NCBI RefSeq assembly: GCF_001667035.1 | Contig: NZ_LZIR01000096.1 | Location: 60,860-92,859 of the forward strand | From: Mycobacterium sp. 852002-51057_SCH5723018 | GTDB lineage: Bacteria > Actinomycetota > Actinomycetes > Mycobacteriales > Mycobacteriaceae | DNA: 32,000 nt | Direction: 5' to 3' | In this document: one piece after another, positions 1 to 26,388 of the stretch | Layout: each line of letters begins with the position of its first letter | Numbering within the stretch: position 1 is the first letter of the stretch | Made by a program: the position numbers and the translations under genes | The notes under the pieces: generated by a model | Told to the model about the DNA's origin: nothing | Databases searched by the model: none | The model's input: the letters and a program-made list of their open reading frames with translations, nothing else

Positions 1-149
1 GCAGCCAGACCCGGCTGGCGACGTGGGTGGCCGAACCGGGCCACACCGCGACGCCCGCGGGCAGCATCTCGACGCCGGTCGACCAGATCGCCGCCGTTCA
101 GGTGGTTTCCGCCGACAACGGCCAGGTTCTGCTGCAGCGCGCCATGTAA
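1..149 (+). CDS. rslA: C-terminal end of a membrane anti-sigma factor (RslA-like); 5' partial, continues upstream of the window
   Basis: Frame 3 reads SQTRLATWVAEPGHTATPAGSISTPVDQIAAVQVVSADNGQVLLQRAM* (stop 147-149). It aligns without gaps to the last 48 residues of the complete anti-sigma ORF at 11780-12520 (11 mismatches counted by eye). The symbol comes from my recollection of the M. tuberculosis RslA C-terminus and of the rslA / MarR-like Rv0737 / mmsB neighbourhood, which I cannot verify here. Confidence 0.6.
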   Translation, partial: SQTRLATWVAEPGHTATPAGSISTPVDQIAAVQVVSADNGQVLLQRAM

Positions 150-163
150 AACCCGACGCGGGG

Positions 164-191
164 TGAACTGAAGTTACCCACGCGTCGTATT
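164..191 (+). promoter_or_regulatory. ECF (SigL-type) promoter motif TGAACT-N16-CGTATT
   Basis: TGAACT at 164-169, a 16-nt spacer, CGTATT at 186-191. It lies 14 nt after the anti-sigma stop and 7 nt before ATG 199. The same box, spacing and context occur at 12536-12563. Confidence 0.55.
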
Positions 192-198
192 ACAAGAC

Positions 199-1941
199 AT
201 GCCCAGAAAGCAGCGGGTGGTCGACCTCCTCGTCGAGCGTCTCGCCTCGATCGGCGTCGACCACATCTTCGGCGTGGACGGCGCCAACATCGAGGACCTC
301 TACGACGCCGCACACTTCCGGTCCGACATCACCGCGGTCCTGGCAAAGCACGAGTTCTCCGCCGCCACCATGGCCGACGGGTACAGCCGCAGCGGCGCCG
401 GGCTCGGCGTCGTGGCTGCCACCTCCGGTGGCGGGGCGCTGAATCTGGTAGCGGCCCTTGGGGAGTCGCTGACGAGCCGGGTGCCGGTGTTGGCTCTGGT
501 CGGGCAAGCCCCGACAGCCATGGACGGCCGCGGCAGCTTCCAGGACACCAGCGGCCAAAACGGATCGCTGAACGCGCAGGCGTTGTTTTCGGCGGTGTCG
601 GTGTCGTGTGAGCGGGTGCTCACGCCGTCGGGCGTCGCGCCGGCGCTGTCCCGGGCGATCGCCGCGGCGCGCACCGGTGGTCCGGCGGTCCTGTTGCTGC
701 CCAAGGACATTCAGCAGGGGTACCTGGAATGCGATCGGGATGGCTGTCCGCCGCAGAACCCGCGTCCCATCGGCAACCCCCAACCGATCGTCGGGGTCCT
801 GCGCGACGCCGACGGCCCGGTCACGATCATCGTCGGCGAGCAGGTGGCCCGCGACGACGCCCGCGCCGAGCTGGAAGCGCTGCGGGCGGTGCTGCGGGCG
901 CGGGTGGCGACAGTCCCGGACGCCAAGGACGTGGCCGGCACGCCGGGTCTCGGGTCCTCGTCCGCGCTCGGGGTGACCGGAGTCATGGGCCACCCCGGTG
1001 TGGCCGAAGCGGTGGCCGGCAGCGCGGTGTGCCTGGTGGTCGGCACCCGCCTGTCGGTCACCGCGCGCACCGGGCTCGACGACGCCCTGGCGGCGGTGCC
1101 GACCGTCTCGATCGGCTCGGCGCCACCGTATGTTCCGGCCACCCACGTGCACACCGACGACCTGCGCGGCTCGCTGCGAATGCTGACCCAGGCGCTGTCC
1201 GGCACCGGACGGCCGACGCGGGTGCGGGTGCCCGACATGGTGCGTCGCACCGAACTGGCCCCGCCGCCGTTCGCCGGCTCGGGCGTGCGCTATCGCGACG
1301 CGATGGCGGTGCTGGACGGCTGCCTGCCCGACGGGACGGACATCGTGGTCGACGCCGGCAACACCGGCGCGGCGGCGATCCACTACCTGCCGGCACGGCG
1401 GGGCGGCAGGTTCGCGGTCGCGCTGGGCATGGGCGGCATGGGCTACAGCTTCGGCGCCGGCATCGGCATGGCCTTCGGGCGCGCCAACAGCGGACGGCCC
1501 GGTGGGCGCACCGTGGTGATCGCCGGTGACGGGGCGTTCTACATGCACGGCATGGAGGTCCACACCGCGGTGCAGTACCGGCTGCCGGTGACGTTCGTGT
1601 TGTTCAACAACAACGCCCACGCCATGTGCGTGACGCGCGAGCAGCTGTTCTACGACGACCTGTACAGCTATAACCGGTTCCACGCCAGCCAGCTGGGTGC
1701 TGGGTTGGCGGGCATGTTCCCCGGCCTGACGTCCGTCGACGTCGGCGACCTCGACGGCCTCGCCGCGGCCATGCGTGCGGCGCTGGCCGTCGACGGCCCG
1801 GCCGTGGTCAGCGTCGAATGCGCCGCCGACGAGATGCCGCCCTTCGCACCGTTTCTCACCCAGGCGTCGGCCAAAGCGACCGGCGCACAGGAGATTCCAA
1901 CCGCAAAGGAGAACCGGACCGATGTCGCTGCTAGCGCTTGA
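199..1941 (+). CDS. Thiamine diphosphate-dependent enzyme (acetolactate synthase / 2-oxoacid decarboxylase-carboligase superfamily)
   Basis: 580-aa ORF. The N-terminal pyrimidine-binding domain has the conserved Glu context LAKHEFSAATMADGYSR. The ThDP/Mg motif is GDG-x24-NN (GDGAFYMHGMEVHTAVQYRLPVTFVLFNNN). Confidence 0.9.
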   Translation: MPRKQRVVDLLVERLASIGVDHIFGVDGANIEDLYDAAHFRSDITAVLAKHEFSAATMADGYSRSGAGLGVVAATSGGGALNLVAALGESLTSRVPVLALVGQAPTAMDGRGSFQDTSGQNGSLNAQALFSAVSVSCERVLTPSGVAPALSRAIAAARTGGPAVLLLPKDIQQGYLECDRDGCPPQNPRPIGNPQPIVGVLRDADGPVTIIVGEQVARDDARAELEALRAVLRARVATVPDAKDVAGTPGLGSSSALGVTGVMGHPGVAEAVAGSAVCLVVGTRLSVTARTGLDDALAAVPTVSIGSAPPYVPATHVHTDDLRGSLRMLTQALSGTGRPTRVRVPDMVRRTELAPPPFAGSGVRYRDAMAVLDGCLPDGTDIVVDAGNTGAAAIHYLPARRGGRFAVALGMGGMGYSFGAGIGMAFGRANSGRPGGRTVVIAGDGAFYMHGMEVHTAVQYRLPVTFVLFNNNAHAMCVTREQLFYDDLYSYNRFHASQLGAGLAGMFPGLTSVDVGDLDGLAAAMRAALAVDGPAVVSVECAADEMPPFAPFLTQASAKATGAQEIPTAKENRTDVAASA

Positions 1942-2584
1942 GGACATCCCCACACCCATTGACGGCGTAACGCGAATCGAAACGAGCCCCCGGGAGAAGG
2001 CCACCCCGATCATCATGGACATGATGCGGTCGGTCTACCCGCACGATCAGGTCTTCGGGGAATACTGCACCGTCAACGATTACGTCGACTGTCCGCCCGA
2101 CGAGCTGTACGAATACATGGCCGACACGCGCAGCCTGGAGGAGTGGACCTACAGCCTGCGTGGCTTCACCCCCACCGACGAACCGGGCCTGTGGCTGGCC
2201 TACGACCGGCTCGGCTCGGAGACCAAGATCTACACCCACACCATCGCCAACCCACAAGCCCGGACCGTCGACTACCACTGCGCCTGGGATCAGGGCAAGC
2301 ACCTGTGGATGGTCTACCTGATGCGCGTCATCGACGCGCAGGTGGTGCTCGACAAGCCCGGTTCGGTTGTGCTGTGGACGAATTGCCATCACCCGTTCTA
2401 CGACAAAAACCCGTACCCGGAGACGGCTCCGCCGCAGCGCCCGGTGTGGGTCGGCGACTTCTGGGACATGTTCGGCGCCGGCCATCTGCTGGAGCTGAAG
2501 AACCTCAAGGCGATCGCCGAGTACCGCCACCGCAACGGGCTTCCGGTGACACCCGATTGGATGCGGCGAAAAGGGGAGCAATGA
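1922..2584 (+). CDS. Conserved hypothetical protein, possibly SRPBCC/START-like (polyketide-cyclase-like) fold
   Basis: ATG 1922 is preceded by AAGGAGA about 10 nt upstream and overlaps the ThDP gene end by 20 nt (the track start 1775 is rejected). 220 aa. It is about 80% identical to 12766-13437 (34 mismatches in 180 aligned residues, counted by eye, mostly conservative), which supports real coding. The fold assignment is a guess from size and sequence pattern. Confidence 0.8.
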   Translation: MSLLALEDIPTPIDGVTRIETSPREKATPIIMDMMRSVYPHDQVFGEYCTVNDYVDCPPDELYEYMADTRSLEEWTYSLRGFTPTDEPGLWLAYDRLGSETKIYTHTIANPQARTVDYHCAWDQGKHLWMVYLMRVIDAQVVLDKPGSVVLWTNCHHPFYDKNPYPETAPPQRPVWVGDFWDMFGAGHLLELKNLKAIAEYRHRNGLPVTPDWMRRKGEQ

Positions 2585-3603
2585 TGACCACGCCGAGCGT
2601 CAGCCTGATCGACGTCTCCACCTATCTGCCCGGGGAACCGATCGGCGCCGACTACTACGCGCAATTCGCCGAATCCGATGAGCTGCGGGACAACATCATG
2701 TTCCGGGCGCCCAGCTTCCGCCATCACGTCGCGCCGGACGAGAGTTCGATCGACATGATCGAGAGCGCGGCGCAGGGCCTGATCGAGCGGCACGGCCACG
2801 ACGTCGTCGAAGGCGCCGACGTGCTGATCACCCACACGCAGGTGCCCGACATGGCGTTCTACGGCCAAGGGGCCGGCATCGCGCACCGGCTGGGCATGCG
2901 GCCCTCCTGGGTGCTCGACCTGAACAACGGCGGGTGCGGGGCATTCGTGTTGGCGCTCAACGTGGCTCGCAAACTGCTGACGGCGGGCGAGGGGCGCACC
3001 GCGCTGATCGCCATCGCGCAAAACGCCGCCGGGCAGTTCTTCGACCAACCGACGATTCGGCGCAAGGCGCAGTCGGCGGTGCCCGGCGACGGGGCGGCGG
3101 TGGGGCTGGTCACGCTGTCCGACCAGTCACCCATCCTGGATGTCGAGTGCCGCACGTACGGCGAGTACGCCGGTGAAATGACGCTTTCGTTCGATCCGCC
3201 GCGCAAGTGGTGGCAGCCCGGGTCCGGCGAGGGCTCCATCGGCTTCACCGACAGCAAGATCACCAAGGTGCTGGCCCGCGGCAACCGGCAGGTCCCCGAG
3301 GTCGCGCTGGCGGTATGTGACCGAATCGGCCTGGCCGCCAAAGACATTGATCTGTTGGTCACCAACCAGCCCAACCGCGCGTTCCTGCGCAACTGGCGCG
3401 ACGCGCTCGAATTGCCGCCCGAACGCCATCGGGACACTTTCGATCAGTGTGGCAACCTGTTCGGCGCCGGAATCCCGATCAACCTCGACCACGCGATAGC
3501 CGACCGTCAGGTCAAGGCCGGCGACGTGGTCCTGATGGCGGCCTTCGCCCACGCCGGCGACTTCGCCGGCGCGGCGGCCGTGCGCTGGGGAGGGCGAGAC
3601 TGA
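2581..3603 (+). CDS. KAS III (FabH)-like condensing-enzyme family protein with a non-canonical active site
   Basis: ATG 2581 has GGGGAG upstream and an ATGA overlap with the previous stop. 340 aa. The active-site Cys context is LNNGGCGAFVLAL and the C-terminal Asn motif is CGNLFGAGIP. The position of the FabH HQAN motif reads VTNQPN. Confidence 0.9.
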   Translation: MMTTPSVSLIDVSTYLPGEPIGADYYAQFAESDELRDNIMFRAPSFRHHVAPDESSIDMIESAAQGLIERHGHDVVEGADVLITHTQVPDMAFYGQGAGIAHRLGMRPSWVLDLNNGGCGAFVLALNVARKLLTAGEGRTALIAIAQNAAGQFFDQPTIRRKAQSAVPGDGAAVGLVTLSDQSPILDVECRTYGEYAGEMTLSFDPPRKWWQPGSGEGSIGFTDSKITKVLARGNRQVPEVALAVCDRIGLAAKDIDLLVTNQPNRAFLRNWRDALELPPERHRDTFDQCGNLFGAGIPINLDHAIADRQVKAGDVVLMAAFAHAGDFAGAAAVRWGGRD

Positions 3604-4655
3604 TGCAACCCGTCCCGGGTCTGTTCGCCGCCGAGATCGACGAGGCGTTTCCCAACGCCGACGATCCGCTCGCCTTGTCGCTCAACGAGAATCCGTTTCC
3701 GCCGCTGCCGGCGGTGCGGTCGGCGTTGATCCGTTCGATCTACGCGGCCAACCGGTATCCGGAGTTCCTGCCGGAACGGCTGCGCGGCTTGATCGCGGGC
3801 CATGTCGGGGTGCCCGCCGACCACGTGGTGCTGGGCGCCGGCGCGACGGGCGTGGCGTTGCAGGCCCTGCACGCGCTGACCGCGCCGGGTGACGCGATAG
3901 CCATGGCGGCGCCGAACTTCGACGGGTATCCGATCATCGCGCAAATGGCGCGGCTGAACCCGCTGACCGTCCCGCTCGGCAGCGACGGCCACAACGACCT
4001 CGACGGGCTGGCCGACGCCGCCGCAAGCGCCCGCGTGGTGGTGGTGTGCCGCCCGCACAACCCGACCGGCACGCTGGAGCCCGTCGCCGAGCTGTTGGGG
4101 TTCCTGCGCCGGGTACCGGGCGACACCATCGTGCTGCTCGACGAGGCCTACATCGAGTTCGCCGCGCCCGAGCTCCGGGTCGACGTCGCGGCGTTGCTCG
4201 CCCAGTTTCCCAACGTGGTGGTGCTTCGGACGTTCTCCAAGGCGTACGGGCTGGCCGGGCTGCGGATCGGTTACGGGCTGGCGGCACCGGGGCTGGCTCG
4301 CACGCTGTGGTCCCAGCAGCTGCCGTTCGGCATCGCGCTCACCAGTTTGCTGGCGGTCGCGTCGTCCTATCAAGCCGAAGATCAACTGCTGCAACGGATC
4401 CAGTCGATCAACGCCGAACGTCGCTATCTGCGGATGCGGCTGAGCGCGTTGGGGATATACACCACAGACGCCCACGCGAACTTCATGTACCTGCCTTCGA
4501 GGGGTCGGCGGGACAGGTCGTGGCATGAGGTGTTCGCCGACAGCGGACTCCACGTCCGCCACTACGGCGACGGGGGCGCGCGGATCACCGTGGGCAACCG
4601 CGCGTCGACGCTGGCGGTGCTGTCCGCGATAGGAAAGACCTCGCTTCGGCCGTAG
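3603..4655 (+). CDS. PLP-dependent aminotransferase, class I/II (HisC / aromatic aminotransferase-like)
   Basis: TGATG overlap with the KAS III-like gene. 350 aa. Motifs: LSLNENPFPP, CRPHNPTG and the PLP-lysine motif RTFSKAYGLAGLRIGY. Confidence 0.9.
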   Translation: MQPVPGLFAAEIDEAFPNADDPLALSLNENPFPPLPAVRSALIRSIYAANRYPEFLPERLRGLIAGHVGVPADHVVLGAGATGVALQALHALTAPGDAIAMAAPNFDGYPIIAQMARLNPLTVPLGSDGHNDLDGLADAAASARVVVVCRPHNPTGTLEPVAELLGFLRRVPGDTIVLLDEAYIEFAAPELRVDVAALLAQFPNVVVLRTFSKAYGLAGLRIGYGLAAPGLARTLWSQQLPFGIALTSLLAVASSYQAEDQLLQRIQSINAERRYLRMRLSALGIYTTDAHANFMYLPSRGRRDRSWHEVFADSGLHVRHYGDGGARITVGNRASTLAVLSAIGKTSLRP

Positions 4656-4672
4656 ATGCGGTAAGAAAGGGC

Positions 4673-5176
4673 GTGGGCGCCTCACGATCCAAACGTGATC
4701 CGATCGCCGCGGCGCGCGACAACTGGGAGCGCGCCGGGTGGGGTGACGTGTCGCCGGGCATGGTCGCGGTCACCTCGGTGATGCGTGCCCATCAGATCCT
4801 GCTGGCGCGCGTCGAGGCCGCGTTGCGTCCCTACGACTTGAGTTTCTCCCGGTACGAGTTGTTGCGGCTGCTGGCGTTCAGCCGTACCGGAGCGCTGCCC
4901 ATCACCAAGGCGTCCGATCGCTTGCAGGTGCACGTCACCAGCGTCACCCACGCCATCCGCCGGCTGGAGGCCGACGGGCTGGTGCAGCGGGTGCCGCACC
5001 CCACCGACGGGCGCACCACGCTGGTGCAGATCACCGACCTCGGCCGGTCCACGGTCGAGGACGCCACCGTGACGCTCAACGAGCAGGTGTTCGCCGACAT
5101 CGGCATGGAAGCCAGCGAGTCGGAAGCGCTGGTGTCGTCCATAGAAACGTTGCGGCGCAACGCGGGCGATTTCTGA
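4673..5176 (+). CDS. MarR-family transcriptional regulator
   Basis: GTG 4673; 167 aa. It shows a winged-helix pattern (LSFSRYELLRLL ... LPITKASDRLQVHVTSVTHAIRRLEADGLVQRVPHPTDGRTTLVQIT). Confidence 0.85.
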   Translation: MGASRSKRDPIAAARDNWERAGWGDVSPGMVAVTSVMRAHQILLARVEAALRPYDLSFSRYELLRLLAFSRTGALPITKASDRLQVHVTSVTHAIRRLEADGLVQRVPHPTDGRTTLVQITDLGRSTVEDATVTLNEQVFADIGMEASESEALVSSIETLRRNAGDF

Positions 5177-5203
5177 ATCGGTGGCGCGCGTGGTCACATC
5201 CGT

Positions 5204-5234
5204 CCCACTTGTCCCGCCGCGGGCAAAAAGTGGG
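5204..5234. terminator. Hairpin between convergent MarR and mmsB genes (possible bidirectional terminator)
   Basis: CCCACTT (5204-5210) pairs with AAGTGGG (5228-5234), and there is internal GC pairing (cccgc/gcggg). It sits in the 113-nt gap between two convergent stops. There is no clear U-tract. Confidence 0.35.
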
Positions 5235-5289
5235 TTGCAGTCCTCGCAGGTGACAATGTGGCGTTTGTGAATACCGTTGCGGCAGTGCG

Positions 5290-6168
5290 TCAGCGCAGCA
5301 TCTCGATGACCGCGCTGAAGTCCTTGCCGGCGTGGGAGGCGTCGGACGCGATGAACTCTGCATAGATCTCGGCGGCGTGGGTGCCCAGCGGCGCCGCAGA
5401 ACCGGTCGAGACCACCGCGTCCATCGCCAGGGCCAGGTCCTTGTTCATCAGCGCGGTCGCGAAGCCCGGCTTGAAGTCGTTGTTGGCCGGCGAGGTCGGC
5501 ACCGGGCCCGGCGCCGGGCAGTTGGTGTGCACCGCCCAGCAGTTCCCCGTCGCGCCGGTGATGACGTCGAACAGCGACTGCGCCGACAGTCCCAGCTTCT
5601 CGGCAAGGACGAACGCCTCGCCGATCACGATCTGCTGCACCGCCAGCACCATGTTGTTGCACACCTTGGCGGCCTGTCCCGCCCCGGCCGCGCCGCAGTG
5701 AATGATCTTGCCCGCCATCGGTTCCAGCACAGGTCGCGCTCGCTCCAGCGCGGCCTCGTCGCCGCCCACCATGAACGCCAGCGTCCCGGCGACGGCGCCC
5801 TTGACCCCGCCCGAGACCGGCGCGTCCAGCTGCGAGACGCCGTGCGACTCGGCGAGCGCGTGCACCTCGCGCGCGTCGTTGACCGAGATCGTGGAGCTGT
5901 CGATGAACAGCGCGCCCGCCTTGGCGGCGGGCAGGATGTCGGCGTAGCAGCGTTTGACGATGTCGCCGTTGGGCAGCATGGTGATGGCCACGTCGGCATC
6001 AGCGACCGCGTCGGCGGCGGTGTCGAACATCGCGACCCCGGCAGTCGTTGCGGCGGCCGCCGCCGTGGGCACCGGGTCGTACCCGCCCACGGTGTGGCCG
6101 GCGGCAACGAGATTGGCGGACATGGGGCCGCCCATGTTGCCCAGCCCCAGGAACGCGATTGCCGTCAT
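5290..6168 (-). CDS. mmsB: 3-hydroxyisobutyrate dehydrogenase
   Basis: 292 aa with the N-terminal Rossmann motif IAFLGLGNMGGPMSANL. It is the last gene of an mmsA-fadE9-mmsB string, as in M. tuberculosis Rv0753c-Rv0751c. Confidence 0.9.
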   Translation of the reverse strand: MTAIAFLGLGNMGGPMSANLVAAGHTVGGYDPVPTAAAAATTAGVAMFDTAADAVADADVAITMLPNGDIVKRCYADILPAAKAGALFIDSSTISVNDAREVHALAESHGVSQLDAPVSGGVKGAVAGTLAFMVGGDEAALERARPVLEPMAGKIIHCGAAGAGQAAKVCNNMVLAVQQIVIGEAFVLAEKLGLSAQSLFDVITGATGNCWAVHTNCPAPGPVPTSPANNDFKPGFATALMNKDLALAMDAVVSTGSAAPLGTHAAEIYAEFIASDASHAGKDFSAVIEMLR

Positions 6169-6186
6169 TGACCCTCCTGCGCCCGC

Positions 6187-7353
6187 TCAAGAAGCCCTGA
6201 ACCGGGCGGCCTCTGCCCGGCCGATGACCACCCGCATGATTTCATTGGTCCCTTCCAGGATCCGATGCACCCGCAGATCGCGCAGGATCTTCTCCACACC
6301 GTACTCGCGCAGGTAACCGTAGCCGCCGTGCAGTTGCAGCGCCTTGTCGGCGACCTCGAAGCAGGTGTCGGTGACATAGCGCTTGGCCATCGCGCACAGT
6401 TCGACCTTGTCGGGGTCATTGGCGTCGAGGGCATTTGCCGCCCGCCACAACATCATTCGCGAGGTCTCAAGCCCGGTCGCCATGTCGGCCAGGGTGAACC
6501 GCACGGTCGGCTCGTCGAGCAGGGCTGAGCCGAACGCCTCCCGCTCCCGCACATACGCGCCCGCTTTGTCGAAGGCCGACTGCGCGCCGCCCAGCGAGCA
6601 CGCCGCGATGTTGAGCCGTCCGCCGTTGAGCCCGTTCATCGCGATGCCGAAGCCCGCCCCCTCGCCGTCGAGCCCGCCCAGCATCGCGTCGGCCGGCACC
6701 CGCACGCCCTCCAGGATCACCTGGGCGGCGGGCGGGGGGTGGCCGCCCATCTTCTCCTCGAGCGCACCGAAACTCAGCCCCTCGGAGCCCTTTTCGACGA
6801 CAAAGGCCGAGATGCCGCGCGGGCCCGGTCTTTCTGGACCGCCGGTTCTTGCCATCACCACGTACACGTCCGAGGCGCCCGCGCCGGAAATGAACTGCTT
6901 GACACCGTCGAGCACGTAGTCGCCGCCGTGCTTGACGGCGCGGGTGCTCAGCGCGCTGGCGTCCGACCCGGCGCCCGGTTCGGTGAGGCAGTAGCTGGCG
7001 ATGACGTCCATCGAGGCCAATCGCGGAACCCAGGCCTTGCGCTGTTCGGGGGTGCCGAAGGTGTCGATCATCCACGCGCACATGTTGTGGATGGACAGGA
7101 ACGCCGCCGTGACGGGGTCGGCGATCGCCAGCTGCTCGAAGATCCGGACCCCGTCGAGCCGGCGCAGCCCGCTGCCGCCGACGTCGTCGCGGCAGTAGAT
7201 CGCCGCCATGCCGAGTTCGGCGGATTCCCGCAACACGTCCGTCGGGAAGTGCTTGGTGGCATCCCATTCCAGGGCGTGCGGGGCGAGGCGCTTGGCGGCG
7301 AACGCGGCGGCCGTCTCGGTGATGACCCGTTCGTCGTCATTCAAAGTAAACAT
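6187..7353 (-). CDS. fadE9: Acyl-CoA dehydrogenase (isobutyryl-CoA dehydrogenase-like)
   Basis: 388 aa with ACAD patterns (YCLTEPGAGSD; the C-terminal QLHGGYGYLREYGVEKILRDLRVHRILEGTNEIM). It starts 4 nt after the mmsA stop. The symbol is assigned by synteny. Confidence 0.88.
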   Translation of the reverse strand: MFTLNDDERVITETAAAFAAKRLAPHALEWDATKHFPTDVLRESAELGMAAIYCRDDVGGSGLRRLDGVRIFEQLAIADPVTAAFLSIHNMCAWMIDTFGTPEQRKAWVPRLASMDVIASYCLTEPGAGSDASALSTRAVKHGGDYVLDGVKQFISGAGASDVYVVMARTGGPERPGPRGISAFVVEKGSEGLSFGALEEKMGGHPPPAAQVILEGVRVPADAMLGGLDGEGAGFGIAMNGLNGGRLNIAACSLGGAQSAFDKAGAYVREREAFGSALLDEPTVRFTLADMATGLETSRMMLWRAANALDANDPDKVELCAMAKRYVTDTCFEVADKALQLHGGYGYLREYGVEKILRDLRVHRILEGTNEIMRVVIGRAEAARFRAS

Positions 7354-7357
7354 CGTT

Positions 7358-8878: not shown

Positions 8879-8979
8879 CGTGTCTCTCTGAAGTCGTCTT
8901 TGCGCGATACTTGCATATCCTAGTAAATGCGGGCCCGGGTCACAAGGGCTCGAGAAGCGCCGCCGCCTCCCCGCCCACC

Positions 8980-9007
8980 TGAACCGCAAGCCGCTCCGGA
9001 TCGTGTC
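8980..9007 (+). promoter_or_regulatory. ECF (SigL-type) promoter motif TGAACC-N16-CGTGTC
   Basis: TGAACC at 8980-8985, a 16-nt spacer, CGTGTC at 9002-9007. It lies 54 nt upstream of ATG 9062 in the mmsA/FMO divergent intergenic region. It is an exact match to the SigL consensus as I recall it. Confidence 0.6.
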
Positions 9008-9061
9008 AGTGCTGGGTGCCCGAGATCCTCGGCCCCGGGAAACACGACGGGAGACGCGCGC

Positions 9062-10249
9062 ATGGCGACGGAGATCCGGGACAGCCCCGACGCGGTTGTC
9101 ATCGGCGCGGGGCCCGCCGGCCTGGCTGTCGCACGCCAACTCGACTATCGGCATGGCATGAAAGCGCTCGTCGTTGACCGCGCGACGGCCCCGGGGATTT
9201 CATGGCGCACGCGCTACGACAACTTCCGCCTCAACACGACCGGGTTCTTGTCGCACCTGCCCGGGCAACGGATTCCGTTGAACGCCGGGCGTTGGCCGAC
9301 CAAGGAGGACATGGTCCGCTATTTCGACAGCTACGTTCAACGACAGAACATCGCAGTCAAGCTCGGATGTGACGTCCACCGCATCGATCGTGAAGAGCGA
9401 GTCTGGCGACTCGCCACATCGTCGGGTGAGATTCGAACCCCGGCAATCGTTCTGGCGACCGGCAACTACAGGACACCCACCATTCCTGACTGGCCCGGAC
9501 TGAGCCGTTTCAACGGCGTTATCGTGCACTCCGGGCACTTCACAAACGCTTGGCCCTACCGCGGTCGCGACGTCCTCGTCGTCGGCGCGGGCAATTCGGC
9601 CGCCGACATCGCGGTTCAGCTCGTCTATGACGGCGCGCGACGGGTTTGGCTCGCAGTGCGCACGCCGCCGCACCTCGTGCGGCGGTCTCTCGGGCCGTTT
9701 CCATCCGACATCTTCCTCGAGCTGTTCTCGAGAGTTCCCGCGCGCATGGTCGATCCGCTGATCGCGCGCATGAACCGCCTGATGTGGGGGGACCTGACGG
9801 CCTACGGCTTCGCTCGGCCAACCCTCGGGCTCAAGGCGACGGTGGAGACTAGAGGCCGTATCCCGACGCTGGCCGACGAGCTGATCGACGTCGTGCGGGC
9901 CGGGCTCGTCGAGGTCGTCGGCGCCGTCGAGGCGATCGACTCCGACGGCGTGATCCTCAGCGACGGCAGATCCGTAGCGCCGCAGGTGATCATCGCCGCC
10001 ACCGGGTTCGGCCCGGATCTCGACGGTTTGGTCGGGCACCTCGGCGTCCTCGACGAGCACGGCAACCCGCGCGGCGGCTTTGCCTCGCACGTCGGCAACG
10101 GAATGTTCGCGATCGGATACGGCATTCCGCCCAACGGCCCGCTGCGCGCGATCCGCATCAGCGCGACGCGATTGGCCCGGCAGGTGGCCGGATACCTCGC
10201 GAAGACCCAGCTAAAAACTAAGGCGTACAATGACTTTACCTTCCTATAA
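9062..10249 (+). CDS. NAD(P)/FAD-dependent flavin-containing monooxygenase-like oxidoreductase
   Basis: ATG 9062 has GGGAG 8 nt upstream. 395 aa. There are two dinucleotide-binding motifs: VVIGAGPAGLAVA (FAD) and VLVVGAGNSAADIAV (NADPH). Confidence 0.85.
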   Translation: MATEIRDSPDAVVIGAGPAGLAVARQLDYRHGMKALVVDRATAPGISWRTRYDNFRLNTTGFLSHLPGQRIPLNAGRWPTKEDMVRYFDSYVQRQNIAVKLGCDVHRIDREERVWRLATSSGEIRTPAIVLATGNYRTPTIPDWPGLSRFNGVIVHSGHFTNAWPYRGRDVLVVGAGNSAADIAVQLVYDGARRVWLAVRTPPHLVRRSLGPFPSDIFLELFSRVPARMVDPLIARMNRLMWGDLTAYGFARPTLGLKATVETRGRIPTLADELIDVVRAGLVEVVGAVEAIDSDGVILSDGRSVAPQVIIAATGFGPDLDGLVGHLGVLDEHGNPRGGFASHVGNGMFAIGYGIPPNGPLRAIRISATRLARQVAGYLAKTQLKTKAYNDFTFL

Positions 10250-11567
10250 GACCTTTTTCCGTGGCGCGGACGGTTACGAACGAGCCCGTCGGGAAACGGT
10301 GTGGAATGGACTTGTCCCGGATCGCTTTCCCGATGTCATCGTGCAGGCGCACGACACCGACGACGTGGTCGCGGCGATCCGTTATGCGCGGACCCACGGA
10401 TGCCAGGTCGGTGTACGTTCGGGCGGGCACAGCTGGACGGCCAGCCACCTACGCGACGGTGGACTGCTGCTCGACGTCAGCCGCCTCGACCACTGCACTG
10501 TCGAACCGGATCGGATGACCGCAGAGGTCGGCCCGGGCAAGGTCGCCAGCGTCTTCGCGGCAGAGCTGGACACCCAAGGGCTGTTCTTCCCCGCCGGCCA
10601 CTGCGAAGGCATCTGCCTCGGCGGCTATCTCTTGCAGGGCGGCTACGGCTGGAACGGTCCGGTGCTCGGGCCGGCATGCGAGAGCGTGCTAGGGCTGAAA
10701 GTCGTCACCGCCGACGGTGAACAGATTTACTGCGACCCCGAAAACCATCCAGACATGTATTGGGCGGCTCGCGGCGCCGGACCGGGCTTCTTCGGCGTGG
10801 TCACCTCGTTCAAGCTGCGGGTGCACCCACGTCCCCCGGTCTGGGGCACCTGCCTTTACATGTATCCGATCGAGGTTGCCGACGAGGTGTTCAGCTGGGG
10901 ACGCTCGATCATTCCTGAGCTCGACGACCGGGTCGAATTGCAGATCCACACCGCGCGCAGCTTTCCGGGAGCCGGGCTCAACCAACCCGGCATCACGATC
11001 GCCTCGCCAGTATTCGCCGACTCGGAGGACGAGGCGCTGAAAGCCCTTGCCCCGCTGGGCACTTGCCCGGTCATCGACAAGGCGATCGTCAGCCTCCCTT
11101 ATGCGCCGACAACTTTGGCCAATTGGTACACCGCCGTGATGACCAGCTACCCGAAGGGATTTCGCTACATCGCCGACAACATGTTCACCTCGGCTTCGGC
11201 CGAAGAACTAACGCCGGGCATCCGCAAGATCATCGAAACCATGCCACCGCACCCCTCGCACTTCATCTTCACGGGCTGGAAGACGGCCCCGGAGCGCGCG
11301 GACATGGTGTACGGGGTGGAAGACGAGGTCTACATGGCCCTCTACACCATCTGGCAGGATCCGGCCGACGATGATCGGTACCGCGACTGGGCCGCGTCCA
11401 ACATGGCGGCGATGTCGCACCTGGCGACCGGCAGCTCGCTCGCCGACGAAAATCTATGCCGGCGTCCGGCGCGATACATCGCCGAGTCGAACATGGCACG
11501 CCTCGACAAGGTGCGCCTGGCATACGACCCGGATGGTCGTTTCCACAGCTGGATGAGCGGGGTCTGA
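10230..11567 (+). CDS. FAD-linked oxidase (PCMH-type FAD-binding domain, BBE/VAO-like)
   Basis: 445 aa. The motif VGVRSGGHSW is typical of FAD-linked oxidases that can attach the flavin covalently through His. The start overlaps the FMO gene end by 20 nt, so a later start is possible. Confidence 0.85.
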   Translation: MTLPSYKTFFRGADGYERARRETVWNGLVPDRFPDVIVQAHDTDDVVAAIRYARTHGCQVGVRSGGHSWTASHLRDGGLLLDVSRLDHCTVEPDRMTAEVGPGKVASVFAAELDTQGLFFPAGHCEGICLGGYLLQGGYGWNGPVLGPACESVLGLKVVTADGEQIYCDPENHPDMYWAARGAGPGFFGVVTSFKLRVHPRPPVWGTCLYMYPIEVADEVFSWGRSIIPELDDRVELQIHTARSFPGAGLNQPGITIASPVFADSEDEALKALAPLGTCPVIDKAIVSLPYAPTTLANWYTAVMTSYPKGFRYIADNMFTSASAEELTPGIRKIIETMPPHPSHFIFTGWKTAPERADMVYGVEDEVYMALYTIWQDPADDDRYRDWAASNMAAMSHLATGSSLADENLCRRPARYIAESNMARLDKVRLAYDPDGRFHSWMSGV

Positions 11568-11616
11568 CCGCCGGGGCGGCTTGAAACTCGGCTAACCGTG
11601 GCGGGTGTGCCACGGG

Positions 11617-11644
11617 TGAACCAGACAGGCGCTTCGGTCGTTTC
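11617..11644 (+). promoter_or_regulatory. ECF (SigL-type) promoter motif TGAACC-N16-CGTTTC
   Basis: TGAACC at 11617-11622, a 16-nt spacer, CGTTTC at 11639-11644. It lies in the 212-nt gap upstream of the second anti-sigma gene and 16 nt before a 40-codon ORF (11661-11783). Confidence 0.5.
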
Positions 11645-11779
11645 ACCAGCAGGAAGGTAAATGGAGCGCCTATTCCCAAGGCGCTCTACGACGGACCCGC
11701 CCCGGCGGCCGCCCGGAATGGCCTTCAGCTACGAAAACCCTTACGTACCAAGAAATATCCCACGAGACGGGAGTATACG

Positions 11780-12520
11780 ATGATGCCGCTATGGCGGCCC
11801 GGGACACCGATCGGCGGTGACCTATCCGGGCATGACGAGTACGCGATGTGGGATGCCGCATACGTGCTGGGATCTCTATCGTCCCCAGAAAGGCGGGAAT
11901 TCGAAGCGCACCTGCCCGAGTGTCTGTTGTGCCGCAGCGACGTCGGCGAGCTCAACGGCATCCCGGCCCTCCTGTCGCAGCTGGAGCGCGACGAGGTGGC
12001 GGTGATCGCCCAGGTCGGCGGCGCAGAACTGTCGCCACCCGACGAGTTGCTGCCGTCCCTGCTGGTCAAAGTGCACTGGCGGCGGCGCCGGTCCCGCATC
12101 GTGGCCTGGACGGCTGGGACCGCGGCAGCCGCGGTCCTCGCGATCGGTGTGTTCGTCGGCGTCACGGGCCAACCCTCGACGTCCGTGCCCATGCCGCCGC
12201 AGGCGAGCGTGGCGGTACAGCCGATGACACAGGTCGGAACCGACAAGCTCGCCTCGACGATCTCGCTCAGCAGCCAGCGGTGGGGAACGTCCATCTCGAT
12301 GAGCTGCGTCTGTCTGGCCCCGCTGAACGCCCATCACGACACGTTGGCGATGGTTGTGGTAGGTCGTGACGGTAGCCACACGCGGATGGCAACCTGGGTG
12401 GCAAATCCGGGTCACACGGCGATGCCCGCCGGCAGCATTTCAACACATGTCGATCAAATCGCTTCTGTGCAGGTGATTTCCGCCGACGACGGCCAGGTCC
12501 TCCTGGAGCGTTCGCTGTGA
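11780..12520 (+). CDS. Zinc-associated (HxxxCxxC) membrane anti-sigma factor, RslA paralogue, with no adjacent sigma gene
   Basis: 246 aa with GGGAG upstream. The ZAS motif is EFEAHLPECLLCRSD. A basic stretch RRRRSR is followed by one TM helix (IVAWTAGTAAAAVLAIGVFVGV) and an extracytoplasmic C-terminal domain. The C-terminus aligns to 1-149. Confidence 0.85.
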   Translation: MMPLWRPGTPIGGDLSGHDEYAMWDAAYVLGSLSSPERREFEAHLPECLLCRSDVGELNGIPALLSQLERDEVAVIAQVGGAELSPPDELLPSLLVKVHWRRRRSRIVAWTAGTAAAAVLAIGVFVGVTGQPSTSVPMPPQASVAVQPMTQVGTDKLASTISLSSQRWGTSISMSCVCLAPLNAHHDTLAMVVVGRDGSHTRMATWVANPGHTAMPAGSISTHVDQIASVQVISADDGQVLLERSL

Positions 12521-12535
12521 ATTTCCTACCCCGAG

Positions 12536-12563
12536 TGAACTGAAGTCACCCGCGGCTCGTGTT
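12536..12563 (+). promoter_or_regulatory. ECF (SigL-type) promoter motif TGAACT-N16-CGTGTT
   Basis: TGAACT at 12536-12541, a 16-nt spacer, CGTGTT at 12558-12563, 15 nt after the anti-sigma stop. It aligns with the box at 164-191 (gtgaactgaagtYacccRcg...tcgtRttac). Confidence 0.55.
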
Positions 12564-12591
12564 ACCGGGAGTTACGAAGTTAGGCAGGCAG

Positions 12592-12666
12592 ATGGCCAGG
12601 CAACACAGGGTGGTCGATCGTGTCGTCGAGCACGGTCGAACGTCGAATGCACTTAGCGTGCATTAG
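12592..12666 (+). pseudogene. Remnant of the ThDP-enzyme gene (internal deletion of about 1.6 kb)
   Basis: A 24-codon ORF, MARQHRVVDRVVEHGRTSNALSVH*. Its first 13 codons align to MPRKQRVVDLLVE of the gene at 199. The next stretch, acggtcgaacgtcgaatgc, resembles gtggtcagcgtcgaatgc near 1805-1822 of copy A, and similarity then decays. Confidence 0.6.
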
Positions 12667-12765
12667 ATTTCAACGCTGACACCGCCCGGGGGGTCGTCAG
12701 AATTGGCGGTAATGACCGACGTGGCAGCCGCCTTGTCTCAAATACTAATGAGGAGAACCGATTTC

Positions 12766-13437
12766 ATGTCCATTGCAGCGCTTGAAGATATCGCGGTCCA
12801 CAGCGGCACCACCGAGCCGATCGAGGGAGTGGTCCGTATCGAGACCTCGCCGCTTGAACAGACCGCCCCGACTTTCATGGCGAAGATGCGGTCGGTGTAT
12901 CCGCACGACGAGGTCTACGGCCAGTACTGCACGGTCAACGACTACGTCGACTGCCCACCCGATGAGCTGTTCGAATACCTGGCCGACACCCGCAGTCTCG
13001 AGGAGTGGACCTATACCCTGCGTGACTTCTCCCCGACCGCGGAGCCCGGGCTCTGGTTGGCCTACGACCGATTGCTCCCGGACACCAAGATCTACACCCG
13101 CACGGTGGCCAACGCCGAGGCCCGTACCGTCGACTATCACTGCGCGTGGGACCAGGGCAAGCACCTGTGGATGATCTATCTGATGCGGGTGGTCGACGCG
13201 CAGGATGTGCTCGGCAAGCCCGGTTCCGTTGTGCTGTGGACCAATTGCCGCCACCCGTTCTACGACCACAACCCTTATCCCGATGCCGCCCCGCCGGAGC
13301 GCACGGGCTGGGTGGGCGACTTCTGGGACATATTCGGAGTCGGTCACGCGCTGGAACTGAACAATCTCAAGTCAATCGCCGAATACCGCCACCGCAACGG
13401 CCTGCCGGTCAAGCCGGAATGGATGAGTACACCATGA
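12766..13437 (+). CDS. Conserved hypothetical protein, SRPBCC-like (paralogue of 1922-2584)
   Basis: ATG 12766 has GAGGAG 9 nt upstream (the track start 12703 is rejected). 223 aa; about 80% identical to copy A over the C-terminal 180 residues. Confidence 0.8.
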   Translation: MSIAALEDIAVHSGTTEPIEGVVRIETSPLEQTAPTFMAKMRSVYPHDEVYGQYCTVNDYVDCPPDELFEYLADTRSLEEWTYTLRDFSPTAEPGLWLAYDRLLPDTKIYTRTVANAEARTVDYHCAWDQGKHLWMIYLMRVVDAQDVLGKPGSVVLWTNCRHPFYDHNPYPDAAPPERTGWVGDFWDIFGVGHALELNNLKSIAEYRHRNGLPVKPEWMSTP

Positions 13438-14453
13438 ACCAACCCACCGTCAGCCTCGCCGACGTTTCCACCTATCTGCCCGGGGAACCCATCGCCGCCG
13501 ACTACTACGCGCAGTTCGCCGGCTCGGATGACCTGGCGTCCAACCTGATGTTCCGCGCGCCCAAGCTGCGTCATCACGTCGGGCCGGACGAAACCGCGAC
13601 CGATATGATCGAGCGAGCCGCACAGGGCCTGATCGAACGGCACGGCCACGACGTCATCGAAGGCGCCGACGTGTTGATCACCCACACCCAGGCACCCGAC
13701 CTGCCGTTCTATGGCGCCGGCGGGGGCGTCGCCCACCGGCTGGGCATGCGGCCGTCCTGGGTGCTCGACCTGCACAACGGTGGGTGCGCCGCTTTCGTGT
13801 TGGCGCTTAACGTCGCTCGTCAACTGTTGGCCTCAGGTTTGGGGCACACCGCGCTCATCGCCATCGCACAAAATGCCGCCGGCCAGGTCTTCGATCAGCC
13901 GGGAGTTCGGCGCAAGGCGCAGGCGGCGGTCCCCGGCGATGGCGCCGCGGTGGGCCTGGTCACCTTGTCCGACCGGTCGCCCATTCTCGATATCGAGTGC
14001 CGGACCTACGGCGAATACGCCGGTGAGATGACGCTCGCTTCGGACCCGCCCCGCAAGTGGTGGCAGCCCGGGGCCGGTGAGCTCTGCATCGGATTCACCG
14101 AAACCAAGATCACCAAGGTACTGGCTCGCGGCAATCGACAGGTCCCCGAGGTGGCGCTGGCCGTCTGTGATCGAATCGGCCTGCCGTCCAAGGACATCGA
14201 CCTGCTGGTCACAAATCAGCCCAACCGGGTGTTCCTGCGCAACTGGCGCGAGGCGCTCGACGTGCCGCGCGAACGTCATCGCGACACATTCGATGAGTGC
14301 GGCAACCTGTTCGGCGCGGGCATCCCGATCAACTTGGATCGCGCGATATCGGACGGTCAGGTCAAGGCCGGTGACGTCGTGATGATGGCCGCCTTCGCGC
14401 ACGCCGGCGACTTCGCGGGTGCGGCGGCGGTGCGCTGGGGCGGACGAAGCTGA
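13434..14453 (+). CDS. KAS III (FabH)-like family protein (paralogue of 2581-3603)
   Basis: ATG 13434 has an ATGA overlap with the previous stop (alternative ATG at 13419). 339 aa. It has the same Cys context (LHNGGCAAFVLAL), the same VTNQPN in place of HQAN, and CGNLFGAGIP. Confidence 0.9.
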   Translation: MNQPTVSLADVSTYLPGEPIAADYYAQFAGSDDLASNLMFRAPKLRHHVGPDETATDMIERAAQGLIERHGHDVIEGADVLITHTQAPDLPFYGAGGGVAHRLGMRPSWVLDLHNGGCAAFVLALNVARQLLASGLGHTALIAIAQNAAGQVFDQPGVRRKAQAAVPGDGAAVGLVTLSDRSPILDIECRTYGEYAGEMTLASDPPRKWWQPGAGELCIGFTETKITKVLARGNRQVPEVALAVCDRIGLPSKDIDLLVTNQPNRVFLRNWREALDVPRERHRDTFDECGNLFGAGIPINLDRAISDGQVKAGDVVMMAAFAHAGDFAGAAAVRWGGRS

Positions 14454-15502
14454 TGCTACCCCTGCTGGAGGCCAGCCCCGTCACCGCCGGAATCCTCGAT
14501 GCGCTGCCGAACGCGACCGATCCATTCGCTTTGTCGCTCAACGAGAATCCGTTTCCACCGCTGCCGGGGGTGCGCTCGGCGCTGGTCCGCTCGATCGACG
14601 TCGCCAACCGGTATCCGGAGTTCCTGCCCGATCGGTTGCGCCGCCTGATCGCCGGTCATATCGGGGTTGGCGACGAGCAAGTCGTGCTCGGGGCGGGTGC
14701 AAGCGGCGTGGTGATGCAGGTCCTGCACGCCGTCACGCGGCCCGGTGATCGGATTGTGCTGAGCGAGCCGACTTTCGACGGTTATCCGATCTTCGCGAAG
14801 ATGGCCCGCCTGACATCGGTCACCGTTCCGCTCGATAAGCGCGGCCACCACAACCTGGACGCAATGGCCGATGCGGCGGCAGACGCCAGTGTCGTCGTCT
14901 TGTGTCGGCCCGACAACCCGACCGGCACCCTCGAACCGGTCGCGGACGTACAGCGCTTCCTGCGCAGGGTGCCGGGCGACACCGTCGTTTTGCTCGACGA
15001 GGCGTACATCGAGTTTGTTGTGCCCCAGCTCCGCATCGACGGACCCGACCTGATTCGCCGCTTTCCGAATGTCGTTGTGGTGCGCACGTTCTCCAAGGCA
15101 TATGGCTTGGCCGGTCTCCGCATCGGGTACGGGTTCTCCGCACCGGAACTGGCCAGCACACTGTGGGGGATGCAGTTGCCGTTCGGCATGGGCATCACAA
15201 GCCTGGTCGCGGTGGCGGCGTGCTACGACGCCGAAGACCAGCTGCGGCAACGCGTTCTGCGGATCACCGGAGAGCGCGATTACCTGTCCCGGCGCCTTCG
15301 GGCAAAGGGCGTATACACCACCGACGGGCACGCCAACTTCGTTTACCTGCCAGCGGCCCGGCGCCCCTGGTGCGAGGTGTTCGGCGACACCGGCCTGAAG
15401 GCCCGCTACTACCCTGACGGCGCCGCACGGATCACCGTCGGAAGCCGCGCGTCCACACAGGCGGTGCTGGCCGCAGTGGCCACGTCGCGGTCCGCTGGCT
15501 AG
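14453..15502 (+). CDS. PLP-dependent aminotransferase, class I/II (paralogue of 3603-4655)
   Basis: Same TGATG overlap as copy A. 349 aa. Motifs: LSLNENPFPP, CRPDNPTG, RTFSKAYGLAGLRIGY. Confidence 0.9.
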   Translation: MLPLLEASPVTAGILDALPNATDPFALSLNENPFPPLPGVRSALVRSIDVANRYPEFLPDRLRRLIAGHIGVGDEQVVLGAGASGVVMQVLHAVTRPGDRIVLSEPTFDGYPIFAKMARLTSVTVPLDKRGHHNLDAMADAAADASVVVLCRPDNPTGTLEPVADVQRFLRRVPGDTVVLLDEAYIEFVVPQLRIDGPDLIRRFPNVVVVRTFSKAYGLAGLRIGYGFSAPELASTLWGMQLPFGMGITSLVAVAACYDAEDQLRQRVLRITGERDYLSRRLRAKGVYTTDGHANFVYLPAARRPWCEVFGDTGLKARYYPDGAARITVGSRASTQAVLAAVATSRSAG

Positions 15503-15510
15503 TGCGGCGG

Positions 15511-15538
15511 TGAACTTCTCGTCGAAGTCCCGCGTGGT
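15511..15538 (+). promoter_or_regulatory. ECF (SigL-type) promoter-like motif TGAACT-N16-CGTGGT
   Basis: TGAACT at 15511-15516, a 16-nt spacer, CGTGGT at 15533-15538. It lies 8 nt after the aminotransferase stop and 19 nt before ATG 15558. It has the weakest -10 box of the five, and the predicted start site would fall at or near the AGGAGG RBS. Confidence 0.4.
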
Positions 15539-22996: not shown

Positions 22997-23291
22997 CTGA
23001 CACCTTCCCAACCCCGGCCATCAGCGATAAGCGGATGGTAGGCGTGCCCGGCCGCGAAATTGCGTGTTTTCGACGACAATCCGGCCACCCGAAAGTCGTG
23101 TCGACGGCGGACCGCGGGGCGTTCGTCAGGAAGGCTCTGTGCCGCAGAACTTTTCGATGATTGCGTCGGTCTGGGCCGTCGTCGCGAAGCTTCCGCCGAG
23201 AAACTGGATCGACCAGTGGTGCGACGCCTCGACGGCTGAACAGGCGCGACGCGTTCGTGTTCGTGGACCCCGTGCTGGTGCACTTTGTCAG

Positions 23292-26354: not shown

Positions 26355-26388
26355 TGGATCCCCCTCGAAGATGCTTAGTTCGGATGGC

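Follow-up and report, generated by a model that had tools for sequence, protein, structure and literature searches.

The question raised by this locus is why two collinear blocks of genes lie in direct orientation within a single 32,000-nucleotide stretch of Mycobacterium sp. 852002-51057_SCH5723018 (contig NZ_LZIR01000096.1, positions 60,860 to 92,859; the whole stretch is called the window hereafter), what these blocks encode and how the second one arose. An earlier note, made from the letters of this DNA, had read them as a diverged duplication of an anti-sigma gene, a promoter and a gene cassette. We give a probability of roughly 70% to the reading that the blocks are ancient paralogues of a single unit, composed of the sigL promoter, sigL, the anti-sigma gene rslA, a SigL promoter and four genes for carbazole-type enzymes (T, S, K and H, numbered 1 or 2 according to copy). 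The unit would be driven by SigL, a virulence-linked extracytoplasmic function (ECF) sigma factor, and copy 2 would have lost its sigL and, in this strain, also its T gene.

Self-BLASTN of the 32-kb window returned two direct matches in the same order, 3-193 with 12374-12565 (76.6% nucleotide identity over 192 nt, E=9e-35) and 1998-4627 with 12860-15474 (78.7% over 2638 nt, E=0), and a separate repeat search of the window recovered both again. The collinearity of 3-4655 and 12374-15502 claimed by the earlier note is thus borne out at 77-79% nucleotide identity. Gene order and orientation are the same in the two copies, and the ATGA (S/K) and TGATG (K/H) junctions described as conserved are found in both. 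The anti-sigma tails match at exactly the 37 of 48 residues first counted, and the K and H pairs are paralogous as proposed, with 282 of 339 (83%) and 229 of 347 (66%) residues identical. The S pair is highly similar, although the figure of about 80% was too high (166 of 217 residues, 76.5%). The offsets between copies are unequal, 12,371 nt for the first match and about 10,850 nt for the second, because copy 1 holds a gene for a 580-aa thiamine diphosphate (ThDP)-dependent enzyme (T1, 199-1941) without an intact counterpart in copy 2. This indel had been missed, as had the sigL remnant and the identity of the cassette described below. The absence of mobile-element marks was confirmed, in that no transposase or integrase domain occurs among the genes of 1-21 kb of the window. 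The suggestion that the repeats are substrates for recombination fares poorly at present, since the longest exact run shared by the copies is 26 nt at about 78% identity, and we judge present-day recombination between them unlikely. Many rearrangements are seen in the copy-1/copy-2 region of related genomes.

Copy 1 is encoded on the plus strand. It opens with the 3' end of rslA (3-149; 48 codons and the stop), which the left edge of the window truncates; in relatives, a full rslA gene comes after sigL. The cassette follows, with T1 (Pfam TPP_enzyme_N, M and C), S1 (1922-2584; SRPBCC fold), K1 (2581-3603; Pfam ACP_syn_III, like ketoacyl synthase III (KAS III), and overlapping S1 by ATGA) and H1 (3603-4655; a class I/II aminotransferase joined to K1 by TGATG). 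A MarR-family regulator gene (4673-5176; Pfam MarR) comes next and is kept after H in most loci.

The same four families are clustered in the carquinostatin (cqs) and neocarazostatin (nzs) loci of Streptomyces, as CqsB3/NzsH (T), CqsB2/NzsI (S), CqsB1/NzsJ (K) and CqsB7/NzsD (H), and the occurrence of all four together has been published as the signature of carbazole clusters (PMC7466098). According to the same review, CqsB7 turns tryptophan into indole-3-pyruvate, the ThDP enzyme CqsB3 couples indole-3-pyruvate to pyruvate, the KAS III-like CqsB1 condenses the product with an acyl-acyl carrier protein (acyl-ACP) and CqsB2, the carbazole synthase, closes ring A; CqsB1 and CqsB2 need a beta-hydroxyacyl substrate. 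Mycobacteria are absent from this review, and a literature search turned up no report of a cluster of this kind from the genus.

We compared the window proteins directly with those of the actual cqs cluster (L088), using phmmer bit scores. T1 matched CqsB3 at 35% identity with a score of 257 bits (E=2.3e-75); its best match in the PDB scored 181. S1 and S2 matched CqsB2 at 42% and 43% identity (166 and 176 bits, E=5e-52 and 2.5e-55), and a phmmer search of the PDB with the S1 sequence gave CqsB2 (6ipv_A) as the sole match (E=4.9e-48). For K1, the score was 138 bits with CqsB1 (27% identity), compared with 55 for CqsB5 and 77 for the highest-scoring PDB entry, a FabH; K also shares CqsB1-specific motifs. 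H1 and H2 matched CqsB7 at 46% and 42% identity (277 and 260 bits), compared with 187 for the best PDB match. These scores mark each of the four as a specific homologue of its Cqs counterpart: T of CqsB3, S of CqsB2, K of CqsB1 and H of CqsB7.

The S protein has no Pfam match and is labelled 'SRPBCC family protein' by NCBI. Its structural model, predicted from a 36-sequence alignment (pLDDT 79, pTM 0.74), has the helix-grip fold of CqsB2 in a beta-alpha-alpha-beta6-alpha layout. The top Foldseek match was CqsB2 of Streptomyces exfoliatus (6ipv_A; E=2.4e-17, 40% identity), out of 162 PDB matches at E<=0.001 that include PYR/PYL and TcmN ARO/CYC, with generic SRPBCC proteins ranking after CqsB2. 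Both catalytic tyrosines of CqsB2, Tyr144 and Tyr172, are conserved in S as Tyr132 and Tyr160. Scytonemin synthesis by ScyA, ScyB and ScyC follows the same logic (an aromatic 2-oxo acid, ThDP-dependent acyloin coupling and a dedicated cyclase), but it has no KAS III-like step, and a kinship of S with ScyC was rejected. That match (E=1.8e-4) lies far under the family cut-off and is superseded by the much stronger match to CqsB2, so that we regard scytonemin as an analogy rather than as a system to which the cassette belongs.

In the pathway that these homologies suggest, H would convert tryptophan or another aromatic amino acid into a 2-oxo acid, T would couple the 2-oxo acid to pyruvate to give an acyloin, K would condense the product of T with an acyl thioester, and S would cyclise the product of K. 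Flavoenzymes and a methyltransferase would tailor the cyclised product. The product and the chemistry of T-S-K-H are putative on this basis. The window cassette differs from cqs and nzs in its gene order (T-S-K-H, not B1-B2-B3...B7), in its coupling to an ECF sigma/anti-sigma pair and in being duplicated. A further comparison is offered by the carbazomycin (cbz) cluster of Streptomyces luteosporeus, which encodes a minimal set of aminotransferase, ThDP enzyme, cyclase and KAS III-like protein together with an O-methyltransferase and a FAD-binding protein, and which has no gene for an ACP, a second KAS III or a prenyltransferase (PMC11610953). This set parallels the copy-2 block of the window, with its FAD_binding_4 protein, flavin monooxygenase and O-methyltransferase. 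The parallel of the tailoring enzymes with CbzC and CbzMT is one of gene type, and the mycobacterial block differs in having additional flavin-containing monooxygenase (FMO)-like and FAD_binding_3 enzymes and no short-chain dehydrogenase/reductase.

A scan of one genome per species identified at least 584 loci encoding S relatives, and all window proteins were mapped onto the best 80 of these. Most of the 80 loci, including those of Mycolicibacterium and of species with a single copy, keep the order anti-sigma-T-S-K-H-MarR-(mmsB fadE9 mmsA). This makes copy 1 the ancestral locus and the valine catabolism genes mmsB-fadE9-mmsA (5290-8872, minus strand, assigned through Pfam), which lie outside the duplication and whose synteny is kept in single-copy species, its ancestral neighbours. 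Upstream of the cassette, relatives encode adk, map and then an ECF sigma factor nearly identical to SigL of Mycobacterium tuberculosis (E=5.8e-99 to 6dv9_F). By its synteny, copy 1 is the vertically inherited ancestral unit sigL-rslA-[SigL promoter]-T-S-K-H-marR beside the valine genes. The layout is compatible with the tandem-like duplication proposed earlier, whereas a later separation of the copies by the valine genes and the FMO/oxidase operon does not agree with the valine genes being ancestral neighbours. In many species mmsA directly adjoins the ECF-sigma/Rieske genes, while in others FMO and oxidase genes and then an A2-type anti-sigma gene follow it. Such variation indicates that the copy-2 block, about 9 kb long, is an indel; it lies between mmsA and the ECF-sigma/Rieske genes. 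The block, absent from many species, comprises A2, S2, K2 and H2 together with genes for the FMO-like monooxygenase (FMO), a FAD_binding_4 oxidase (FADox), a FAD-dependent monooxygenase (FADmo) and an O-methyltransferase (OMT).

In M. tuberculosis, rv0737 lies directly after rslA and its product binds the sigL-rslA promoter; the M. smegmatis orthologue is Ms_1492 (PMC13002591). The T-S-K-H cassette is thus absent from M. tuberculosis, between rslA and rv0737, and no second RslA has been described there. The other elements correspond: the relatives have a sigma factor all but identical to SigL of M. tuberculosis, the second anti-sigma of the window matches RslA and a MarR gene follows. Synteny points to the MarR gene downstream of H1 as the positional orthologue of Rv0737/Ms_1492, and the Ms_1492 numbering would fit four genes between rslA and the MarR gene.

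The SigL consensus is TGAACC at -35 and CGTGTC at -10 (PMC2703886), and the boxes found in the window match it. The pattern TGAAC-N17-CGT occurs five times, always on the plus strand, against 1.08 expected, and none of 100 shuffles reached five; a stricter promoter pattern gave two matches in 32 kb (0.13 expected). These two are the box that had been noted as conserved between the copies, TGAACT-N16-CGTATT upstream of the T1 operon (164-191) and TGAACT-N16-CGTGTT (12536-12563), which stands before the scar of T2 and then S2-K2-H2. A perfect consensus box (TGAACC-N16-CGTGTC, 8980-9007) lies 82 nt upstream of FMO in the FMO-FADox pair and is kept at -82 to -84 in the closest relative (L086), in M. 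nebraskense (L010) and in M. interjectum (L087). Another (TGAACC-N16-CGTTTC, 11617-11644) precedes A2. The fifth, SigL-like box (TGAACT-N16-CGTGGT, 15511-15538) precedes FADmo-OMT and is kept in L086 and in two metagenome-assembled genomes (MAGs), L081 and L084. This last box overlaps the start of the longest FADmo open reading frame (ORF; GTG at 15510); translation probably begins instead at the ATG near 15558, and the leader would then be very short. Among the related loci, a box follows the anti-sigma stop codon in 51 of 68, always with a 16-nt spacer, and one is found upstream of T in 66 of 73, staying with T where other genes are inserted. The boxes suggest that both clusters depend on SigL and that A2 acts as a second anti-sigma factor in the same circuit. 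SigL, freed from RslA, would transcribe both clusters and A2, and A2, being SigL-induced, would feed back on SigL.

Copy 2 (about 11607-15502, plus strand) reaches to the left of 12374 and takes in the whole A2 gene, a sigL-type promoter and a remnant of sigL. A2 (11780-12520) is a full-length RslA paralogue, predicted to be a zinc-finger anti-sigma factor (Pfam zf-HC2; RslA 3hug_B, E=2.7e-24), with an HLPECLLC motif (H-x3-C-x2-C), a transmembrane segment and a conserved C-terminal domain. Nucleotide homology of its gene to rslA runs from about 11840, with weak N-terminal similarity back to 11780. A2-type proteins were found in more than 120 clusters at 75-85% identity. No cognate sigma gene adjoins A2; all that stands upstream is the eroded remnant of sigL. 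Between FADox and A2, a spacer of 213 nt carries the box at 11617-11644, whose CGTTTC subtype is that of the box standing 48 nt upstream of sigL in 56 of 70 loci and is kept upstream of every A2-type gene examined. A DNA profile built with nhmmer from 67 regions spanning the sigL promoter and sigL matched the window at 11607-11695 (10.0 bits, E=2.6e-5) and the corresponding oxidase-A2 spacers of L086 (45.8 and 31.2 bits), L049 (33.8), L010 (19.3 and 11.9) and L087 (2.5). The matches are collinear with the profile, and in no genome did any of 200 dinucleotide shuffles reach the observed score. The duplicated unit thus appears to have begun at the sigL promoter and to have included sigL. On these profile matches, the second sigL is eroded and the second anti-sigma gene is retained intact; after the duplication, sigL would have been lost, leaving its promoter and a remnant (about 11607-11695), and the anti-sigma gene would have been kept. 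The ECF sigma gene at 18219-18770 was considered as a partner of A2 and rejected, given that a tblastn search of the window with SigL found nothing better than E=0.22 and the gene is not SigL-like. This second ECF sigma gene (Sigma70_r2/r4) moreover has a downstream partner of its own, overlapping the gene for a 234-aa Rieske [2Fe-2S] protein (18767-19471), and the pair is kept downstream of copy 2 in L086 and L087.

The remainder of copy 2 begins with the T2 deletion scar (12592-12775), delimited by alignment to the intact copy 2 of L086 and L087. A segment of 1679 nt in L086 (10854-12532), nearly the whole of T2, is replaced in the window by 117 unmatched nt (12634-12750). What is left of T2 is a 5' remnant of 14 codons (12592-12633, with its ATG at 12592; MARQHRVVDRVVEH versus MPRKQRVVDLLVER in T1) and a 3' remnant of about 25 nt (12751 to about 12775). 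Copy 1 (3-4627) aligns with the copy 2 of L086 over 4708 nt at 77% identity, so the ancestral unit included T. Next come the paralogues S2 (12766-13437; CqsB2 family), K2 (13434-14453; CqsB1-like by its Pfam domain and by comparison with K1 and CqsB1) and H2 (14453-15502; CqsB7-like). In the source strain, S2-K2-H2 would rely on T1 for the shared acyloin intermediate. The accessory genes of the block, assigned through Pfam and also on the plus strand, are FMO (9062-10249) and FADox (10230-11567) upstream of A2, and FADmo (to 16805; FAD_binding_3, of the aromatic-monooxygenase type) and OMT (16792-17910; Methyltransf_2, Dimerisation) downstream of H2. By their domains, FADmo and OMT are probable tailoring genes, and the same pair comes after copy 2 in L086 and L087. 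The closest relative, L086 (on the contig of L001), and M. interjectum have a complete copy 2, with the order FMO-FADox-A2-T2-S2-K2-H2-FADmo-OMT.

The divergence between copies is spread over all gene pairs. Synonymous divergence (dS) is 0.89 for the anti-sigma tails, 0.85 for S1/S2, 0.54 for K1/K2 and 0.86 for H1/H2, with dN/dS values of 0.14, 0.17, 0.18 and 0.27, respectively, and T1 differs from the T2 of a relative by a dS of 0.87. Both the purifying selection and the considerable age that the earlier note attributed to the copies are supported by these values. For comparison, the dS between orthologues is 0.26-0.55 for the window and close relatives and 0.53-0.99 for the window and Mycolicibacterium sphagni. 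Sliding identity between the copies is fairly even (0.60-0.86), highest in K and without a sharp tract, and gene conversion was accordingly set aside; an old conversion in K is possible but unproven, given its lower dS (0.54) and poorly resolved tree.

Neighbour-joining (NJ) trees with bootstrap recovered clades of copy-2 sequences across species for A (100), T (100), S (95) and H (100), and with a low value for K (33). S1 of the window is 86-96% identical to its orthologues in other species, compared with 76% to S2 of the window, which in turn is 91-92% identical to the copy-2 S proteins of L086 and M. interjectum. To the question of whether the copies are each other's closest relatives, which the earlier note had proposed as a check, the answer is no: each clusters with its own orthologues. 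The two-copy layout is also present in M. interjectum, M. nebraskense and several MAGs, and by these phylogenies the copies are old paralogues common to several species.

Several points weigh against the reading of a duplicated, SigL-driven, carbazole-type unit. In 77 of 84 K sequences, Asn occupies the position of the catalytic His of CqsB1 and FabH (TNQPN versus THQPN in CqsB1), so that Cys and Asn of the KAS III Cys-His-Asn triad are present and the His is replaced; the conservation of this change implies that the chemistry may differ. Glu105 of CqsB2 corresponds to Asp95 in S, a conservative change. Unlike cqs and nzs, the cassette encodes no ACP, no second (classical) KAS III and no prenyltransferase, the window contains no CqsB5 or CqsB6 homologue, and identities to the Cqs proteins are in the range of 27-46%. 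The copy-1 sigL-rslA pair was seen solely in the closest relatives (L001/L086), and its presence in the source genome is inferred from them; exact look-ups with T1, S1 and K1 gave at most a 10.6-kb contig whose sequence starts within T1. The profile match to the sigL remnant in the window has a modest score, and the rooted gene trees discussed below give conflicting answers as to the time and the source of copy 2. Finally, the whole reading is built on sequence comparison, and the expression, metabolites and protein interactions that it entails are putative.

The enzymatic points bear on the rival that survives best, namely that the enzymes are Cqs-like but do not make a carbazole, and either produce another compound derived from an aromatic acyloin or act in amino-acid or fatty-acid metabolism. 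The changed catalytic residues of K and S, the missing ACP and the level of identity to the Cqs proteins all agree with it, as do the phenylalanine aminotransferase that is the nearest solved relative of H and the weak S-ScyC match, which hints at a different acyloin-processing chemistry. We consider this rival unlikely, though a serious one. All four proteins score far above other characterised relatives when compared with the Cqs proteins, the four genes co-occur in the way published for carbazole clusters, and the cbz cluster, a minimal set without ACP, still makes carbazoles. As to the acyl donor, valine catabolism passes through 3-hydroxyisobutyryl-CoA, a beta-hydroxyacyl thioester. It is pure speculation that the adjoining valine operon might supply this compound as an acyl donor in place of the absent ACP system.

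The second rival concerns the origin of copy 2, which may be an ancient acquisition from another mycobacterial lineage, a xenologous sigL-rslA-T-S-K-H unit inserted beyond mmsA. When trees were rooted with the Streptomyces proteins, S2 fell outside all mycobacterial type-1 S sequences (bootstrap 43) and H2 grouped with H of rapid growers (bootstrap 58), as an acquisition would have it. GC content at third codon positions (GC3) is somewhat lower in copy 2, and in MAGs L081 and L084 an S2-type cassette stands at the sigL locus itself, among housekeeping genes and an RslA that are of the ordinary slow-grower type or like those of the Mycobacterium avium complex (MAC). The trees for T and K point the other way: T2 joins T1 of slow growers and leaves rapid growers outside (bootstrap 78), the K2 tree agrees with this, though weakly, and A2 likewise nests with slow-grower type-1 sequences. 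The S and H placements are weak and could reflect unequal rates or long-branch attraction to the distant outgroup, and copy 2 stands directly beside the copy-1 neighbourhood, as expected of a tandem event. Of the two origins put forward earlier, we thus favour the old duplication and regard independent acquisition of a related cassette as unlikely, a rival kept alive by the discordance of the rooted trees. Because these trees are incongruent, we claim no firm date or mode for copy 2.

It is also conceivable, though improbable to our mind, that copy 2 of the source strain is a decaying, non-functional remnant. T2 is deleted with a 117-nt scar, the sigL copy is eroded, and other genomes show reciprocal losses of pieces. 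The remaining genes argue otherwise, since A2, S2, K2 and H2 are full-length, without frameshifts or stops, and their omega values against copy-2 orthologues are 0.11-0.18, although omega averages both lineages and cannot date the loss of T2; the promoter box and Shine-Dalgarno sequence before S2 are likewise retained. The ThDP gene has been lost from one copy repeatedly, namely from copy 2 in the window and from copy 1 in M. interjectum, as well as in L005 (T truncated), L045 and L075. Such recurrence is compatible with a diffusible acyloin supplied by one T to both modules and, equally, with a redundant copy that is slowly decaying. A segmental duplication of recent date, or an artefact of assembly, would be suggested by collinearity alone and has a negligible probability in view of the 77-79% nucleotide identity, the dS of 0.54-0.89, the clustering of each copy with orthologues elsewhere, the presence of the two-copy layout in independent assemblies of other species and a protein record from Mycobacterium sp. 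852002-51057_SCH5723018 that is 100% identical to A2.

If the duplicated, SigL-driven, carbazole-type unit is accepted, a broader proposal can be made, which we hold tentatively and at somewhat less than even odds. Non-tuberculous mycobacteria would carry, after sigL-rslA, a SigL-driven pathway for carbazole-type alkaloids (tryptophan, pyruvate and an acyl unit) that was lost in M. tuberculosis, and control of this pathway would have been the ancestral task of SigL and RslA. In a subset of slow growers the unit would have been duplicated and the second sigL discarded, resulting in a SigL-induced second anti-sigma factor and two modules that differ in tailoring, answer to one sigma factor and two anti-sigma inputs, and can share the ThDP step in trans. 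The known targets of SigL in M. tuberculosis are pks10-pks7, mpt53 and Rv1139c; the proposal adds a testable output, as in most mycobacteria the operon directly downstream of sigL-rslA would encode carbazole-type enzymes under a SigL promoter. The 'displaced' position of the MarR regulator Rv0737 in M. smegmatis (PMC13002591) would likewise be accounted for by the intervening cassette. Reports of homologous carbazole clusters have to date come from Streptomyces, Sorangium and cyanobacteria, to which a clinically relevant genus would be added. The locus further offers a natural experiment in regulatory evolution, with an anti-sigma gene kept and its sigma gene lost, and with enzyme genes reciprocally lost across species. 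A bare segmental duplication would, by itself, be ordinary.

Several layouts in related genomes were recorded along the way. In M. interjectum (LQPB01000090; L087 1-2342), a degraded copy 1 reads sigL-rslA-(60-aa K remnant)-H-MarR. T, S and most of K are gone from it while copy 2 is complete, the reciprocal of the window. The MAGs L081 (4297-19271) and L084 (4348-19245) carry a single merged cluster, sigL-rslA-FMO-FADox-T-S-K-H-MarR-FADmo-OMT-(mmsB fadE9 mmsA), in which S, K and H are nearer to copy 2 of the window, RslA is of the copy-1 type and the housekeeping genes are those of an ordinary slow grower. A derivation of this merged order from the two-copy layout was rejected, as no single deletion or recombination yields it. 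In MAC-like species such as M. nebraskense, about 5.6 kb of inserted DNA (L010 2564-8150) separate rslA from T and encode a flavin monooxygenase, a membrane protein, an S-adenosylmethionine (SAM) methyltransferase and an ATP-binding cassette (ABC) transporter (permease and ATPase). A similar insert is present in L007, L011, L019-21, L024, L027, L031, L036, L041 and L044, with the SigL box still directly upstream of T. In MAG L083 (2132-8223), the region upstream of the cassette holds a sigL in fragments, a gene of the RPE65 family (carotenoid oxygenase-like), another sigL with an anti-sigma gene, and an inverted FMO/FADox pair. A 10.6-kb Logan contig of SRR3394922 (L085), corresponding to about 997-11579 of the window, is an independent short-read assembly of apparently the same strain; it breaks inside T1 and just before the sigL remnant and A2, both near paralogous segments.

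Other features were observed towards the right end of the window. A PE-PGRS gene (21302-23011, minus strand) encodes a C-terminal aspartyl-peptidase-like domain (PF20729) and explains why the sequence at 22-23 kb is repetitive and GC-rich (0.73). At 23729-23788, three 15-nt units (GGACGGCGTTGTGCT-like) stand in tandem inside an ORF without Pfam match (23487-24191). Two luciferase-like monooxygenase genes in tandem (25488-27249, minus strand) are paralogues, 25567-26354 matching 26459-27249 at 70% nucleotide identity over 808 nt. Further on, a 598-aa protein (28769-30568, minus strand) combines a response-regulator receiver domain with a pyridine-nucleotide-disulphide oxidoreductase domain.

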